Assembly: GCA_044348925.1 (NCBI GenBank)
Contig: JBIKRY010000001.1
Location: 8,371-72,370 of the forward strand
Source of the DNA: Bernardetiaceae bacterium
Lineage (GTDB): Bacteria > Bacteroidota > Bacteroidia > Cytophagales > Thermoflexibacteraceae
Reading direction: 5' to 3'
Length of the DNA stretch: 64,000 bases
The notes beneath the pieces are model-generated. The model saw nothing but the letters and a program-made list of their open reading frames with translations, did no database searches and was not told where the DNA came from. Below are positions 4,779 to 63,742 of the stretch, piece after piece. The stretch's first letter is position 1, and every line of letters begins with the position of its first letter. The position numbers and the translations under genes were made by a program.

Positions 4779-7751
4779 TTACACCACAACATTCACCACT
4801 TTTCCCACCACAATAATCACCTTTTTCGGAGTTTTCCCTTCCAACCATTTCTGCACAGTTTCATCAGCTAAGGCAATTTTTTCAATTTCTGCAACAGTCA
4901 AATCCAAAGAAAGTGTGAGTTTATGACGCATTTTTCCGTTGATAGAAACAGGATATTCAAAGCTACTTTCTACCAAATAACTTTCGTTACAAGTTGGAAA
5001 AGTGGCATTCATTACACTGTATTCTGCTTGCCAATTTTCGATATTTTGGTTTGGATATTGCAAAGCAAACCACAATTCCTCCACAATATGCGGTGCGTAA
5101 GGTGCAAGAATAACCAACAAATCAGCCAAAATTTGCTTTTTATAGCATTTTTGTTCTGTCAATTCATTCACACAAATCATAAATGTACTCACAGGCGTAT
5201 TGAACGAAAATCTTTCCATATCGTCCTCAATTTTCTTGATAGTTTTATGCAAAGTTTTCAATTCGTCTTTTGTTGGTGTGTCATCTGTAACTCTAAAATT
5301 ACCTTTGTCATCATAGAAAAGTCGCCAAAGTTTCTTCAAAAACTTGTGTGTACCATCAATTCCTTGCATATTCCAAGGCTTAAATTGTTCCAAAGGACCT
5401 AAAAACATTTCATACAACCGCAAAGTATCGGCACTATAACGGTTTACAACATCATCAGGATTTACGACATTATACCACCGTTTCGACATTTTTTCAACCG
5501 TATAACCGCAAACATATTTGCCATCTTCCATTTCAAATTCGGCATCTGCATATTCTGGTCGCCAAGCCTTAAATTTTTCCAAATCAAGCACATCATTCTC
5601 AACAATATTTACATCAACGTGCAATTCTTGAATGTTTGCAGCCTCATATTTATCTTTAAATTTCAGAGAAACAAATTTGTTGCTATCTTTCAATTTATAA
5701 ACAAAATTTGACCTACCTTGTATCATTCCTTGATTTATCAGCTTTTTGAAAGGCTCAACCGTCGAAACATAGCCCAAATCATACAAAAACTTGTTCCAAA
5801 ACCTGCTATATAACAAATGCCCTGTTCCGTGTTCAGCACCACCCACATATAAATCTACGGACTGCCAATAATTTTCTGCCTCTTTTGACACAAATTCTTT
5901 GTCATTTTTATTATCCATATATCGCAACCAATACCACGAAGAACCTGCCCAACCTGGCATGGTGCTAAGTTCGTATTCAAACCCAAGCCCCCCAGCCCCC
6001 GAAGGGGGAGTAACCCCCCAGCCCCCGAAGGGGGAGTTTGACGTTACAGCATCAGTTCCCCCTTCGGGGGTTAGGGGGCTATATTTCCAATTTGTTGCCC
6101 TTCCTAATGGTGGCTCACCGTTTTCTGTTGGTTTATATTGGTCTATTTCGGGCAATAACAAAGGCAATTCTTCATCAGAAAGTAGTTTTGGAATATTATT
6201 TTCGTCAAAATAAATTGGCACAGGTTCACCCCAATAGCGTTGTCTTCCAAAAACCGCATCACGCATTCTATAATTTGTTCTTGCAGTGCCAACTCCTTGA
6301 TTTTCAGCAAATTCAATAGCTTTTAAAATAGCTTCGTCTGTATCCAAACCATTTAAAAACCCAGAATTAACCATTTTACCATATTTTTTATCCGTAGGAT
6401 TTTCGAGTTCTTCCGCACCTTCAATCACATTGATAATTGGTAAATTGTATTGTTTTGCAAAACGAAAATCTCTGTCATCAGAACTTGGCACAGCCATTAC
6501 AACGCCTGTTCCATAACCTGCCAACACATAATCTGCTATCCAAACAGGGATTTTTTCGTTATTAAATGGATTTATGACGTAAGAACCTGTAAATACGCCT
6601 GTCGAAGTTTTGACTTCGGTCATTCTTTCTCTTTCACTACGGTTTGCTGCTTTTTCTACATATACTGCAACGGCTTGTTTTTGTTCTTCTGTTGTCAAAG
6701 TTGCCACCAATTCGTGTTCAGGTGCAATGGCAAGGTAAGTAACGCCAAAAGTTGTGTCAATACGAGTAGTGAAAACTTCTAAATACTCCCCAACGCCAAG
6801 CCCCCCAGCCCCCGAAGGGGGAGTTTTTGACGTTGTTTCGTCAGTTCCCCCTTCGGGGGTTAGGGGGCTAATTTTAAACCTCAATTCTGCCCCCAAACTT
6901 TTTCCTATCCAATTTCTTTGTATTTCTTTGATACTTTCCGACCATTCTATGGTGTCCAAATCATTCAATAATCTTTCAGCGTATGCAGTAATTCGCATCA
7001 TCCATTGACGCATTTTTTTACGTTCTACAGGATGTCCACCTCTTTCAGAAACTCCATCTTTCACCTCGTCATTTGCCAAAACAGAACCCAACGCAGGACA
7101 CCAATTCACAAAAGCATCTGCTAAATACGTTAAACGATATTGCAATAATTTATCAGATTTTTCTTTTGCCGAAAAGTTTTGCCATTCTGTTGCCGAAAAA
7201 ATTTGTGTATCTTCATCACAAGCTGCATCTACATTTGCATTGCCATTTTTCTCAAATTCAGCTACTAAAACACCAATATTTTCTGCTTTTTTGCTTTTAT
7301 TGTTATACCAAGATTCGAAAAGTTGTTTGAAAATCCATTGTGTCCATTTGTAATAATCAGGGCTTGAAGTGCGAATTTCCTTGTCCCAGTCATAACAAAA
7401 ACCTATTTTTCCTAATTGATTTTTGAAAGTGGCAATGTTATTTTCGGTAGTAATTTTTGGATGTTGCCCTGTTTCAATGGCGTATTGTTCGGCTGGCAAA
7501 CCAAAGGAATCGAAGCCCATTGGGTGCAAAACATTAAAGCCTTTTAGACGTTTGTAACGTGCAATAATGTCGGAGGCAATGTAGCCGAGAGGATGCCCAA
7601 CGTGCAAACCTGCCCCAGAAGGATAGGGAAACATATCAAGCACATAATATTTGGGCTTTTGGGTGTTGGTGCTAACTTTATACAGTTGCTTTTTTTGCCA
7701 AAGGTCTTGCCATTTGGTTTCTATGTTTTTGGGTGTATATTCTGCTGACAT
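4779..7751 (-). CDS. leuS: Leucine--tRNA ligase carrying two in-frame palindromic-element insertions
   Basis: It has the class I HIGH signature ([16 protein letters not shown]) and KMSKS (VEKMSKR), plus LeuRS-type architecture and the conserved tail [16 protein letters not shown]. The 990 aa include the foreign peptides [25 protein letters not shown] and [33 protein letters not shown]. Confidence 0.97.
5986..6080. repeat. G+C-rich palindromic element, composite copy (duplicated left arm), in frame within leuS
   Basis: agccccccagcccccgaagggggag occurs twice in tandem, followed by a spacer and the right arm ttcccccttcgggggttagggggct. Confidence 0.9.
6799..6869. repeat. G+C-rich palindromic element, canonical 71-bp copy, in frame within leuS
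   Basis: The arms agccccccagcccccgaagggggag and ttcccccttcgggggttagggggct are reverse complements with 3 mismatches in 25. Each arm holds a ccccc-gaa-ggggg mini-hairpin. G+C is about 63% by my count, in an AT-rich gene. Confidence 0.9.
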
Positions 7752-7883
7752 GAGTTTGTAATGTTAAAATAATTGTAACTTCGCAATAGAAATCTAACAT
7801 ACGCTTTAGCGTTGAGTTGATACATTCGAAACCACAAAACTATTCTAATTTATGAAAAAATACAATTTTATTTAAAAAATAAT

Positions 7884-16596: not shown

Positions 16597-16654
16597 GCAA
16601 TAAGACAAAATAATTTATAGTTTTCTTTGTTATAAATTATTGTAACTATTTAGG

Positions 16655-16763
16655 TACGTTGGCAAGGGTGCTTTTTGCACCTTGACAAGCGTAAGCGTAA
16701 CTAAATCACTTTTTTTACGCTTGTCAAGGTGCGAAAAGCACCCTTGCCAACGTAAAAAAATCA
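16655..16763. repeat. Nested palindromic REP-like element: two inverted 39-nt units
   Basis: tacgttggcaagggtgctttttgcaccttgacaagcgta and tacgcttgtcaaggtgcgaaaagcacccttgccaacgta are reverse complements with 1 mismatch. Each contains the ggtgc-ttttt-gcacc hairpin. It is the same family as 63655-63742. Confidence 0.85.
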
Positions 16764-25185: not shown

Positions 25186-25622
25186 TTTTTTACCGCCAAG
25201 TATGTTAAGGTCGCAAAGTTTTTTTCTTTGCGTTTCTCTGCGTAATCTCTGTAACCTCTGCGGTAAAAAGTTTAACCGCAAAGTACGCAGAGATTACGCT
25301 AAGGAAAAAACTTTGCGAACTTCTGCTTTTTGTTTTTTTACCGCCAAGTACGCTAAGGTTACGCAGAGTTATGCCAAGAAAAAACTTTGCGACCTTTGCG
25401 TAATCTTTGCGACCTCTGCGGTTAATCTTTTTTTACCGCTAAGTACGCTAAGGTTACGCAGGGTTACGCCAAGAAAATATAATTTTTGCGACCTTTGCGT
25501 AATCTTTGCGACCTCTGCGGTTAATCTTTTTTTACCGCTAAGTACCCTAAGGTTACGCAGGGTTACGCCAAGAAAATATAATTTTTGCGACCTTTGCGTA
25601 ATCTTTGCGACCTCTGCGGTTA
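25186..25622. repeat. Tandem array of palindromic units (99-bp period) filling the whole intergenic region
   Basis: tttgcgacctttgcgtaatctttgcgacctctgcggttaatc... recurs at 25385, 25484 and 25583, an exact 99-nt spacing. More degenerate units lie at 25186-25384. The two halves of each unit are imperfect reverse complements around taatcttttttta. Confidence 0.9.
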
Positions 25623-49659: not shown

Positions 49660-50101
49660 ATAAGTTTTGGTTTTGATATAGCAATAATAGTAATTTTTTT
49701 GATAATATGTAATTTCTATGCTTATTTTTTATTGTTTGTTATTGCAATATGGTATGCACACAACAGATAACTGTAGCAATGCCAATATTGGAAAAATAAT
49801 CTTACAGATAAGACTATATAACCAAGTAAAAAAATAAATTTAATTAGGTTTTTGTAAATATTCATTTGCAAATAACAAAAATAAATGCGTAATTCGTTGC
49901 AAAATAACGAGTAACAAATATTCATCTAATTAGATATTTTTAACAAAAATATTTTACAAGAAAAGAAGTTATTAAGCAATGTAACATAGGCTTTAGCTTT
50001 TTGTTTAACTATTTGAGTATCAATAATTTATATACAAGCCTAAAGGCTATGTTACATTCCTTAATAATCTCTAAAAAATAATTATAAATATTCTATTACC
50101 A

Positions 50102-52573
50102 ATGTCCTACGAAAATATTAGAGAAGAAGAACTAAAAAATCAAATAGCACACAACTATTTTAGTGAATTTGATTGCCGAAAAATAATTGGTAATGTAGAT
50201 TTTTGTGTAGCCCCCCTGCCCCCCGAAGGTGGAGTTTTTGACGTATTGACTCCCCCTTCGGGGGGTGGGGGGCTTTTGTGGGCAGAAGCCAAAAAAGGCA
50301 TTGCAGATATTTATAAAGCATTGGTGCAGTTGATTCTTACCATTGGTAAGGCACGTACTTTTGATAAATACTTGCCTCCTGCGTATTTGGGTGCTTTTGA
50401 TGCCCAAAAAATAGCTTTTATCCCTTATAATGACATTCACGATATTTTTTATCTGAATGATTTTAATTGGAATGTTACGCCTTCCAATCATGAAAGCAAA
50501 GAATTTCAGCTTATTTATGACAAAGTAAAAAGTATTTTAGACCAAAATACCCTGCTATATTTTTATGGCAAAGATGACAAAGAACTTAAACAATTTATAC
50601 AAACTAATTTTGTTGTAGGGAAGTTTGGCATCACAAAAACCAGAATTGACAAAAATAATTTTATTGTCATTTATAATAAATGGTTACAAACCGTAAAACC
50701 TACGATTGCAGTAAATTGGGATTTGGTAAAAAAAGGAGGTATTATAGATGCAGATTTTTATTTGGCAGACTTGCTTTCTTTAGAAAATAAAACTTTGAAA
50801 GAAAAACTTTTTGTTTTATTAGAGAGAGAATATTATGAACTTGACCGCAAAATAGATGAATGGGGAATATTTAATTCTCGTAAAATTACTTTCAAAGATA
50901 ATTTAAAAGCACACACTTTATTTTGGAATAAATATGAAAGACCTCCTAAAGAGGAATATTGGGATTATATTATCAATCGGCGAGATTTATTAGTTCCGCA
51001 AGATGTAAGAGAACGAAAAGGTAGTTTTTTTACCCCACAAATTTGGGTAGAATTGTCGCAAAAATACTTAACAGATGTTTTGGGTGAGGATTGGCAAGAT
51101 GAATATTATATTTGGGATTGTGCAGCAGGAACAGGAAATTTATTAACAGGTTTAACGAATAAGCACCACATTTGGGCATCAACACTTGATAAACAAGATG
51201 TGGACGTGATGCATGACCGTATTAAAAATGGTGCAAATTTATTGGAAGACCACGTTTTTCAGTTTGATTTTCTCAATGATAGTTTTGATAAATTGCCTAA
51301 AGGATTGCAAAATATTATTAATAGTCCCGAAAAAAGGAAAAAATTGGTGGTGTATATCAATCCGCCTTATGCGGAAAGTAATGGAAGAATAAGTATAACA
51401 AGAAGTAAGGTTCAAGTTTCACGTATTCATACTAAGTATCAGCAGAATTTAGAAAAAGTAGGTGCAGAATTATTTGCACAATTTCTAATACGAATTTATT
51501 TTGAAATTCAAGGTTGTTTTATAGGACAATTCTCAACGTTGAAAGCTGTTAGTGCAGTTAATTCAAAAACTTTTAGAAATAGCTTTTTAGCTAAGTTAGA
51601 GAAGTTATTTGTAGTGCCTGCAAATACTTTTGACAACGTAAAAGGCAAATTTCCCATTGGATTTTTTATTTGGGACACAAAAACCAAAGAAAAGTTTGAA
51701 CAAATTGAAGCTGATGTTTTTAATGCTAATGGCAAGTTAATTAGTAACAAAATCTTCCGTTCTTATGAAAATGAAAAAGGTAGAGTAAATAATTGGTTGT
51801 TATCATTCAAAGATTTAAGTAATAATTATGTTGGTGTTTTAATGGCTGATGCACCCGATTTTCAACACAAAAATTTAATAGCTATTCAAAGTTTTAAAGG
51901 GATAAGACACGGAATCTATTTTCCAATTAATAGTAAAAATTTAATAATAGCTTGCATTTATGTTGCTGTTCGTCATTGCATAGAAGCCACTTGGCTCAAT
52001 GACCGTGACCAATTTATATATCCAAATGAGGATTGGCAAAAAGACAAAGAATTTCAAAATGACTGTTTAGCTTTTACCTTATTTCATAGCCAAAATAAAA
52101 TAAGTTCAAAAGCAGGTACAAATCATTGGATACCTTTTACAGAAGCCGAAGTTGATGCAAGAGATAATTTTGAGAGTAATTTTATGAGTAAATTTATTAA
52201 GGGCAAGCTAAAAATTGAAAAAAATGCCGATTTAATGAATGAATCAACTGTTACAACTTCCGAAAAATTGGTATTTTCTCCCGAAGCACAAGCTGTTTTT
52301 GTGGCTGGTCTTGCTCTTTGGAAATATTATCACCAAGCTATTAAAAATATTCCTGCGTGGCAAATTCCCCCTTCGGGGGTTGGGGGGCTTGTTAATGCTT
52401 CTTTGTACGATATTCGTGAATATTTTCAGGGACGTAATGCTACAGGCAAAATGAATAATAAAAGTGAAGATGAAACTTACACAAAATTAATTGCAGATTT
52501 ACGAGAGGCTTTGAAGGTTTTATCGCAAAAAATAGAGCCGAAAGTGTATGAATATGGTTTTTTAAAAGGGTAA
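50102..52573 (+). CDS. Putative single-chain restriction-modification enzyme: N-terminal PD-(D/E)XK-like motif fused to a gamma-class N6-adenine DNA methyltransferase
   Basis: The methyltransferase motifs, in order, are GSFFTPQ (X), YIWDCAAGTGNLLTG (I) and VVYINPPYAE (IV). The N-terminus reads VDFCV...[22-aa insert]...LWAEAKKG. A C-terminal region of about 400 aa could carry target recognition. The gene holds two palindromic-element copies. Confidence 0.7.
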   Translation: MSYENIREEELKNQIAHNYFSEFDCRKIIGNVDFCVAPLPPEGGVFDVLTPPSGGGGLLWAEAKKGIADIYKALVQLILTIGKARTFDKYLPPAYLGAFDAQKIAFIPYNDIHDIFYLNDFNWNVTPSNHESKEFQLIYDKVKSILDQNTLLYFYGKDDKELKQFIQTNFVVGKFGITKTRIDKNNFIVIYNKWLQTVKPTIAVNWDLVKKGGIIDADFYLADLLSLENKTLKEKLFVLLEREYYELDRKIDEWGIFNSRKITFKDNLKAHTLFWNKYERPPKEEYWDYIINRRDLLVPQDVRERKGSFFTPQIWVELSQKYLTDVLGEDWQDEYYIWDCAAGTGNLLTGLTNKHHIWASTLDKQDVDVMHDRIKNGANLLEDHVFQFDFLNDSFDKLPKGLQNIINSPEKRKKLVVYINPPYAESNGRISITRSKVQVSRIHTKYQQNLEKVGAELFAQFLIRIYFEIQGCFIGQFSTLKAVSAVNSKTFRNSFLAKLEKLFVVPANTFDNVKGKFPIGFFIWDTKTKEKFEQIEADVFNANGKLISNKIFRSYENEKGRVNNWLLSFKDLSNNYVGVLMADAPDFQHKNLIAIQSFKGIRHGIYFPINSKNLIIACIYVAVRHCIEATWLNDRDQFIYPNEDWQKDKEFQNDCLAFTLFHSQNKISSKAGTNHWIPFTEAEVDARDNFESNFMSKFIKGKLKIEKNADLMNESTVTTSEKLVFSPEAQAVFVAGLALWKYYHQAIKNIPAWQIPPSGVGGLVNASLYDIREYFQGRNATGKMNNKSEDETYTKLIADLREALKVLSQKIEPKVYEYGFLKG
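50209..50274. repeat. G+C-rich palindromic element, 66-bp copy, in frame in the methyltransferase-fusion gene
   Basis: agcccccctgccccccgaaggtggag-tttttgacgtattgac-tcccccttcggggggtggggggct encodes [22 protein letters not shown]. Confidence 0.9.
52365..52389. repeat. Solo right arm of the G+C-rich palindromic element, in frame
   Basis: ttcccccttcgggggttggggggct encodes IPPSGVGGL. No left arm is nearby. Confidence 0.8.
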
Positions 52574-63613: not shown

Positions 63614-63649
63614 AAAGGTAGTTAAAGTTTTCTAACTTTAACTACCTTT
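63614..63649 (+). terminator. Stem-loop after the M1 aminopeptidase gene
   Basis: aaaggtagttaaagtt-ttct-aactttaactaccttt forms a perfect 16-bp stem followed by a T-rich run. Confidence 0.7.
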
Positions 63650-63654
63650 TATTT

Positions 63655-63742
63655 TATACGCTTGTCAAGGTCTTCGACCATTGCCAACGTATAAAATAAT
63701 TTCTTTTATATGATTAAGGTCTTCGACCATTGCCAACGTATA
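63655..63742. repeat. REP-like units of the tacgcttgtcaagg...ttgccaacgta family (1.7 copies)
   Basis: tatacgcttgtcaaggtcttcgaccattgccaacgtata is followed by the partial repeat aaggtcttcgaccattgccaacgtata. The flanks are shared with 16655-16763 but the central hairpin differs. Confidence 0.8.

Follow-up and report, generated by a model that had tools for sequence, protein, structure and literature searches.

The stretch of DNA analysed here, 64,000 nucleotides (nt) of contig JBIKRY010000001.1 from a Bernardetiaceae bacterium (hereafter the window), carries a GC-rich palindromic element at positions 50209-50274, in frame within an open reading frame (ORF) for a protein of 823 amino acids (aa) whose architecture resembles that of single-chain restriction-modification enzymes. 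The element fills the loop between an invariant aspartate (D33) and an E-x-K motif (E62-x-K64) in the N-terminal domain, a putative PD-(D/E)XK nuclease. This arrangement can probably be explained by a selfish or neutral palindromic repeat that replaced a variable hairpin loop and persists since the site is permissive, the enzyme itself being probably a working one, of a type IIG/IIL-like kind.

The palindromic element and the loop that it occupies

The sequence of the element, AGCCCCCCTGCCCCCCGAAGGTGGAGTTTTTGACGTATTGACTCCCCCTTCGGGGGGTGGGGGGCT, parses as the imperfect palindrome AGCCCCCCTGCCCCCCGAAGGTGGAG-TTTTTGACGTATTGA-CTCCCCCTTCGGGGGGTGGGGGGCT. Its two arms (50212-50235 and 50249-50272) are 24 nt each and 88% complementary, and with a spacer of 13 nt they form an inverted dimer which is GC-rich in a window of about 33% G+C. 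The arm pattern CCCCCTTCGGGGGNNNGGGGGC, with up to two mismatches, occurs eight times in the window as against 0.00 times in shuffled sequences, and the RNA of the element folds as a single hairpin of -54.7 kcal/mol (shuffles -27.7 +/- 3.5; z -7.8). The element is far above what chance would give. Its palindromy means that both orientations encode a similar peptide, (S/A)PL(T/P)PEGG...PPSGxGGL. On its left the element is bordered by GTGT and on its right by TTGTGGGCAGAAGCC. As the closest gene lacking the insert (P0033, on L121) has 33 nt of unrelated loop sequence at this position, the element takes the place of native sequence in the loop. An independent metagenome contig (L001) has an identical gene, free of indels and rearrangements. 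It differs from the window by two single-nucleotide polymorphisms, both of them outside the gene, and phase variation at the G6/C6 runs, which was also considered, was rejected for want of evidence.

In 101 of 120 close homologues the segment from FCV to LLWAEAK is 14 residues long, which gives 21 residues from the D to the E, a spacing that 100 of 119 close relatives show. The usual segment is (S/C)MHQSQKELFEQES, and a canonical example of the loop is CMHQSQKELFEQES. Distant representatives have D-to-E spacings of 13-25, and the loop ranges from 11 to 28 aa among intact homologues. The window protein, with a segment of 21 residues and a D-to-E spacing of 28, has therefore a net gain of 7 aa over the usual loop. 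Judging from these alignments the D-to-ExK loop is naturally long and variable, and the element fills or replaces it and splits no tight motif. The initial annotation had correctly placed the palindrome between the D and the ExK, in what the models give as the hairpin joining the two strands that hold these residues. It had also pointed out that removal of the insert leaves D-x6-E-x-K. This is right as arithmetic, but the arrangement is not the ancestral one, since insert-free homologues have a D-to-E spacing of 21 residues. A comparably long loop in such homologues was named in advance as speaking against the proposal, and it is essentially what was found (14 aa as against 21 aa).

Both AlphaFold models show the insert as a loop of low confidence flanked by two strands that are modelled with confidence, the predicted local distance difference test score (pLDDT) being below 50 at residues 42-54 of the full-length model and 44-55 of the N-terminal one. 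Moreover, about nine of the 120 closest homologues have Pro/Gly-rich, repeat-derived sequence in the same loop. The sequence in P0100 is of the window's arm type, as a CAAAG/CTTTG variant, and has one right arm more. The loops of P0102 and P0115 hold an opposite-orientation heterodimer, which is the form seen in leucyl-tRNA synthetase (LeuRS), and the loop of P0002 holds a different palindrome. In P0003 (73% identity) the element stands at the same site and the motif residues are kept.

Three full copies and one half copy of the element are found in the window, all of them within genes, namely the 823-aa ORF and the gene for LeuRS (Table 1), and no target-site duplication is evident at any of the four. 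The loop of the 823-aa protein that receives the half copy is variable or absent among homologues (alignment columns 930-965) and has pLDDT below 50 at residues 758-760. In LeuRS both insertion points are empty in distant, Pontibacter-like orthologues of 921-927 aa, the same two points hold assorted element-derived peptides in the closest relatives, and an 82%-identical orthologue is without the first insert. Both are gapped, variable regions when aligned with solved LeuRS structures. The presence of repeats in the nuclease loop as well as in the LeuRS loops can be explained by selection sparing a promiscuous element only in permissive loops, and the same pattern in LeuRS argues against a special tie between the element and restriction genes.

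Many Cytophagales LeuRS proteins (P0278, P0283, P0284, P0286, P0287, P0303 and others) are 1085-1212 aa long and contain Pfam DUF559 (PF04480), with or without MTES_1575 (PF18741), these being endonuclease-like domains inserted in the synthetase. The DUF559 insertion is another kind of insertion in the same essential gene.

An exact-pattern scan of one genome per species gave at least 119 loci for the family to which the element belongs. Among the matches listed, to which all the counts for this family refer, the titled loci are almost all from Bacteroidota (Flavobacterium, Capnocytophaga, Prevotella, Lutibacter, Chitinophagaceae, Cytophagales and others). In its basic form the unit reads roughly TCCCCCTTCGGGGGTTAGGGGGCT. 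What is conserved is a unit of about 26 nt, (A)TTCCCCCTTCGGGGGTTAGGGGGCT(T), with a stem of five G:C pairs and a loop of 3-4 nt, UUC(G)/GAA, and this is mostly a singlet outside long ORFs. Inverted dimers within long ORFs are concentrated in metagenome-assembled genomes (MAGs) of Cytophagales, the order in which the neighbours of its LeuRS also place the host of the window. Thirty-six of the 145 arms lie in ORFs that extend for 80 codons or more to either side, and 29 of these 36 are read in the PEGG/PPSG frame as against 12 expected (binomial p 8e-9), a bias that suggests selection acting on the peptide. No Rfam family covers the element, with no match at the gathering threshold and only spurious miRNA-like matches at E up to 10, and no earlier description of it was found in the literature searched. 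Membership of the CGTC-tagged super-family of repetitive extragenic palindromic (REP) sequences was considered and rejected, given that CGTC lies within 25 nt of 21 of 148 arms and that the stem is one of 5 bp.

Table 1. Positions in the window of the element copies, of the genes that carry them and of the residues and motifs discussed.
Feature	Positions	Strand	Remarks	Basis
GC-rich palindromic element	50209..50274	+	66 nt = 22 codons; encodes A37-L58 in frame and fills the loop	
823-aa ORF	50102..52573	+	type IIG/IIL-like architecture	ORF list, homologues, AlphaFold model
D33 codon	50198..50200	+	invariant Asp at the start of predicted strand 34-37	alignments, AlphaFold models
E62-A63-K64 codons	50285..50293	+	ExK (E62 50285-50287, K64 50291-50293); predicted strand 59-63	
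Methyltransferase motif I, W338-DCAAGTGNLL-348	51113..51145	+	AdoMet-binding loop	invariant columns; gamma-class fold match
Methyltransferase motif IV, N420-P-P-Y423	51359..51370	+	invariant; recombination/mosaic breakpoint just downstream	
Half copy, right arm only	52362..52390	+	IPPSGVGGL; second variable loop near the C-terminus of the 823-aa ORF	
LeuRS ORF	4779..7751	-	990 aa, two element copies; typical Cytophagales length 921-927 aa	
Full element copy in LeuRS	6799..6869	-	in frame, 24 aa; just before the TTRxDT motif, editing domain	
Element copy with duplicated arm in LeuRS	5986..6081	-	in frame, 32 aa; variable region	

The host protein, its family and other repeats in the window

The 823-aa protein consists of a putative PD-(D/E)XK domain (residues ~1-130), a helical connector (~130-300), a gamma-class N6-adenine methyltransferase (~300-530), a target recognition domain (TRD) and C-terminal helices. 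It is thus a single-polypeptide fusion of nuclease-like (putative), methyltransferase and TRD parts, with no constant partner gene. Within the N-terminal domain every one of 37 close homologues has the D of D33, as do 42 of the 44 rows of distant representatives, the other two being gaps. The position of E62 is E in 42 of these rows (one D, one gap) and that of K64 is K in 43 (one gap). The window has all three residues, and also E8 of helix 1 and Q76 of the helix that follows the ExK strand, and each of the five is conserved in homologues of as little as about 35% identity.

The N-terminal AlphaFold2 model has a pLDDT of 88 and a predicted template modelling score (pTM) of 0.85. Both models give a helix at 8-19, a bridge at 24, strands at 34-37 and 59-63, a helix at 70-84 and strands at 95-99 and 103-108. 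This predicted alpha-beta-beta-beta-alpha-beta order, with the D at the start of strand 2 and the ExK in strand 3, is that of the PD-(D/E)XK superfamily. Foldseek found weak matches in the PDB to RecU (TM 0.41-0.45), the nuclease fragment of DrdV, bunyaviral cap-snatching endonucleases and a Cas4-like protein. In BFVD a single significant match came up, to an uncharacterised viral protein (E 1e-5, TM 0.69), the others being weak matches to RecU and PD-(D/E)XK proteins. The domain is likely, rather than certain, to be a PD-(D/E)XK nuclease, a call made from motif conservation and predicted topology only, and its nuclease fold and activity are spoken of here in that conditional sense.

The remainder of the protein is, by its motifs and its predicted structure, a gamma-class N6-adenine methyltransferase with a TRD. 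The order of motifs X, I and IV (FFTP 309-312, DCAAGTG 339-345 and NPPY 420-423, all invariant) is as in this class, and the full-length AlphaFold2 model (pLDDT 80.7) matched CamA, M.BseCI, DrdV, MmeI, the EcoKI M subunit and LlaGI in the PDB at E 1e-8 to 1e-6.

The family of this protein comprises more than 8000 proteins of about 800-812 aa with 60-73% identity, mostly from Bacteroidota and all unnamed, and the N-terminal 290 residues as query gave 514 clusters at 50% identity. The 823-aa protein has no match in Pfam at E up to 1, MmeI domain families included, and matches no family in PADLOC. Its sole NCBIfam match is to a MAD2 methyltransferase with 18.5 bits, the cutoff being 720. Searches of PDB sequences with phmmer and with a profile returned nothing except a fortuitous match to a protein designed de novo.

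The gene is a single ORF whose neighbours differ in every genome and context examined for the family, and relatives are the solitary cargo of small plasmids in Helicobacter, Acinetobacter, Fluviibacter and Ligilactobacillus. Compared with P0033, the window gene has a nucleotide identity of 69% over codons 1-36, of 87-93% over codons 76-400 and of about 50% over codons 418-600; this last segment is 71-81% identical to P0002. These jumps, read from the alignments, suggest cassette shuffling of the methyltransferase-C/TRD part just after NPPY, with possibly a further breakpoint at the element-bearing loop. The changing neighbours, the plasmid cargo, the paralogues and the mosaicism fit a mobile defence gene.

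The Cytophagales MAG GCA_013299115.1 (L123 1-12484 and L126 3001-5454) holds four or more paralogues of the family. Two of them form a tandem directly upstream of dnaA, and one has Uma2, DUF4276 and AAA_15/AAA_21 genes as neighbours; three have differing palindromic inserts in the same N-terminal loop. The Helicobacter pylori plasmid pUM157 (NZ_KM583817.1 3210-6106; L124 4001-6897) carries an unannotated homologue with 44% identity and 98% coverage. It was recovered by tblastn in three pieces, and on this mobilisable plasmid it is probably a pseudogene with frameshifts.

Other repeats were also noted in the window. A near-perfect AT-rich hairpin of 109 nt (49964-50072; arms of 53 nt, 77% complementary, -37.1 kcal/mol, z -6.9) lies 30 nt before the start codon of the 823-aa ORF, which shares this intergenic region with a divergently oriented GAF/PAS gene. 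Related to it is a single arm, AATCTAACATACGCTTTAG, at 7791-7809, just upstream of the LeuRS start. The hairpin may represent a second, intergenic repeat family or a regulatory site. Moreover, a palindrome with 47-nt arms at 16648-16761 shares the motif ACGCTTGTCAAGGT with a palindrome at 63649-63699, and a cluster of overlapping inverted repeats with units of the CTCTGCGTAATCTCTG type occupies 25207-25432. The genome appears to be rich in several repeat families.

Explanations for the insert

According to the explanation that we favour, the element is a copy of a short GC-rich palindromic repeat family that is spread through the Bacteroidota and that, in the Cytophagales lineage, occurs as inverted dimers inside genes, in the manner of the Rickettsia palindromic elements (RPEs) or of intragenic REP dimers. 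Copies would last only where a Pro/Gly-rich loop of 20-30 residues is harmless. Here a copy would have landed in the hypervariable beta-hairpin loop between the D33 strand and the E62-x-K64 strand, turning a 14-aa loop into one of 21 aa. The host protein would most likely be a functional single-chain restriction-modification enzyme of type IIG/IIL-like character, in which the insert is a tolerated surface loop.

We infer that the insert is tolerated, and likewise the mechanism by which the element would move. The tolerated-loop reading is drawn from the presence of the same family twice in frame in the essential LeuRS gene; from the naturally long loop, the low-confidence model loop, the conserved residues and the lack of decay; from the other repeat-derived inserts in the same loop of homologues; from the spread of the element through the phylum and its bias of reading frame within ORFs; and from the precedent of intragenic REP dimers and RPEs. 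The initial annotation had offered tolerance as an alternative, and it is the one that we prefer. Its broader statements, that the gene resembles those of single-chain restriction enzymes and that a repeat is remodelling a restriction-modification-like gene, agree with the methyltransferase fusion and the type IIG/IIL-like architecture, and with the insertion of the element at two places in the 823-aa ORF.

Several observations nevertheless weigh against this explanation. The native loop has a semi-conserved LF-x-x-E motif that is missing from the window, and its loss may have carried some functional cost. Among the columns of the N-terminal domain that are at least 85% conserved the window has eight substitutions where the family averages 3.7, which puts it near the 90th percentile. 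A hairpin of -55 kcal/mol followed by UUUU stands 107 nt into the mRNA and could lower expression. Finally, the best Foldseek match of the N-terminal model in the PDB has E 0.3, which is not significant, scans of Pfam, NCBIfam, PADLOC and PHROGs with the whole protein and with 38 N-terminal domains brought up no family of use, and a profile search of PDB sequences found no nuclease. The proposal of a PD-(D/E)XK nuclease in the initial annotation has the motif conservation and the predicted topology behind it, and no significant nuclease match came from the structure and profile searches.

These observations lead to other explanations. The insert might cripple cleavage, either by distorting or overlengthening the catalytic hairpin or through the loss of LF-x-x-E, and so leave an orphan methyltransferase and a disarmed toxic gene, as the initial annotation had suggested. 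The element does replace the entire native loop, the semi-conserved LFExE stretch included. At the 85% level the eight substitutions of the N-terminal domain stand against one in the methyltransferase, and the orphan methyltransferase CamA is among the best structural matches of the whole protein. However, two of the eight substitutions lie in the loop itself, and the raised count is a weak hint of decay at most. Where at least 95% of the 120 homologues agree on a residue, the window departs from it twice in the nuclease-like region, once in the TRD/C-terminal region and nowhere in the connector or the methyltransferase, as against family means of 0.7-1.3, and its substitutions at conserved positions stay inside the spread seen in the family. 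With one and a half elements in frame, the ORF is still intact. The putative catalytic D33, E62 and K64 are kept along with Q76, E8 and all the family-invariant N-terminal positions, and P0003, with the element at the same site, also keeps the residues of the catalytic motif. Moreover, intact homologues have loops up to the length of 28 aa, the model retains both strands, and an essential LeuRS tolerates the same element twice. Inactivation of cleavage is therefore unlikely, disarming of the gene by the element is not supported, and the finding provides no evidence for repeats that disarm restriction genes.

An action of the element at the nucleic-acid level, in which the hairpin and U-run attenuate transcription or slow translation, or the arms permit switching by deletion or inversion, seems unlikely. 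The stability of the hairpin (z -7.8) would suit such a role, as would the two terminator-like matches inside the element (0.6 expected) and the direct orientation, in frame and 2115 nt apart, of 50249-50272 and 52365-52390, which differ at one of 24 positions. Nevertheless the U-run derives from the conserved LLW codons, outside the element, and the LeuRS copies are without a U-run, in a gene that is essential and highly expressed. As to switching, the gene in L001 shows no rearrangement, and repeats of 24 nt are poor substrates for recombination. An equally low probability is given to the N-terminal domain being no nuclease at all and being instead, for example, a DNA-binding or regulatory module, in which case the position of the insert relative to the D and ExK would be catalytically meaningless. 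The structure and profile searches, with their only significant fold match in an uncharacterised viral protein, can be taken in this sense. What speaks for a nuclease is the predicted alpha-beta-beta-beta-alpha-beta order, in which strand 2 starts with the D, strand 3 has the ExK, helix 1 a Glu and helix 2 a Gln, residues that are conserved to about 35% identity. In addition, PD-(D/E)XK proteins are enriched among the weak matches, the domain order agrees with enzymes of the MmeI/DrdV type, and members of the family are solitary plasmid cargo or lie near defence-like genes. Of the same low probability is that the loop between strands 2 and 3 is a recurrent landing pad for several different palindromic elements, which would also act as recombination joints, shuffling N-terminal, core and TRD cassettes and maybe diversifying a surface that anti-restriction proteins of phages could target. 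The repeats would in that case have an active part in how a family of defence genes evolves.

Comparison with known systems

The host protein can be compared with enzymes of the MmeI/DrdV type, which, like the 823-aa protein, have an N-terminal nuclease-like D...ExK domain, a helical connector, a gamma-class N6-adenine methyltransferase (motif I, NPPY), a TRD and C-terminal helices. The Foldseek matches of the 823-aa model under this type are 7lo5, 7lvv and 5hr4 (E 3e-7 to 3e-6), and a mosaic, variable methyltransferase-C/TRD segment is what would be expected of specificity-swapping enzymes. The family differs from these enzymes in having no match to the Pfam MmeI_* families, NCBIfam or PADLOC, in being shorter (about 800 aa), in its unusually conserved N-terminal domain and in the several paralogues found in some genomes. 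CamA, the orphan N6-adenine methyltransferase of Clostridioides difficile, and M.BseCI are the best structural matches of the methyltransferase and TRD (E ~1e-8), but they are without the N-terminal extension of about 300 aa bearing D...ExK and have a sequence identity of 11-13%. A family of more than 8000 members with a single-chain restriction-modification architecture, outside Pfam, PADLOC and effectively NCBIfam, would be worth characterising.

A close parallel to the behaviour of the element is offered by the RPEs, which Ogata et al. reportedly described in 2000 (cited in PMC3733652). Like the element, these are short multi-copy palindromes that lie in frame in many unrelated genes, essential ones included, where they add a hydrophilic peptide in surface loops and preserve the ORF. 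Either orientation gives a similar peptide, and presence or absence varies between close relatives. The differences are that RPEs have Rickettsiales as hosts, not Bacteroidota (Cytophagales), and have no sequence similarity to the element, which is 66-96 nt long as against about 100-150 nt for RPE-1 and is extremely GC-rich in an AT-rich genome. Moreover, unlike RPEs, the unit of the element is an intergenic singlet in most Bacteroidota. If our explanation is true, selfish palindromes within protein-coding genes, classically a matter of Rickettsia, extend to free-living Bacteroidota of the order Cytophagales, and a very short GC-rich element settles time and again in the same permissive loops of proteins that are unrelated to one another. 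Segments rich in Pro and Gly in proteins of Bacteroidota, SPLTPEGG...PPSGAGGL for example, would then be repeat-derived and should be masked in alignments and structure predictions.

The element also resembles the REP dimers. GTAG/CGTC REP dimers in the ORFs of several bacterial species encode 20-30 aa, and the proteins decorated by them include aminoacyl-tRNA synthetases and nucleases (Di Nocera et al. 2013, PMC3733652). REP doublets have been described as a mobile unit under the name of REPINs (Bertels & Rainey 2011, PMC3116915). Like these, the element is made of inverted dimers of a hairpin unit of about 25 nt, the two units being set apart by a short spacer, and lone units are found as remnants. 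The CGTC families have a terminal CGTC tag, a stem of 8-9 bp starting with A:T pairs and a loop of 4-5 nt (PMC3733652), whereas the stem of the element has five G:C pairs. The element has no GTAG tag, and GACG/CGTC flanks the spacer only in Cytophagales dimers (the 21 of 148 arms mentioned above). The element therefore falls outside the sequence definitions of the GTAG/CGTC families, yet it behaves like the RPEs and the REP dimers, and it is an instance of a kind of phenomenon that is already known.

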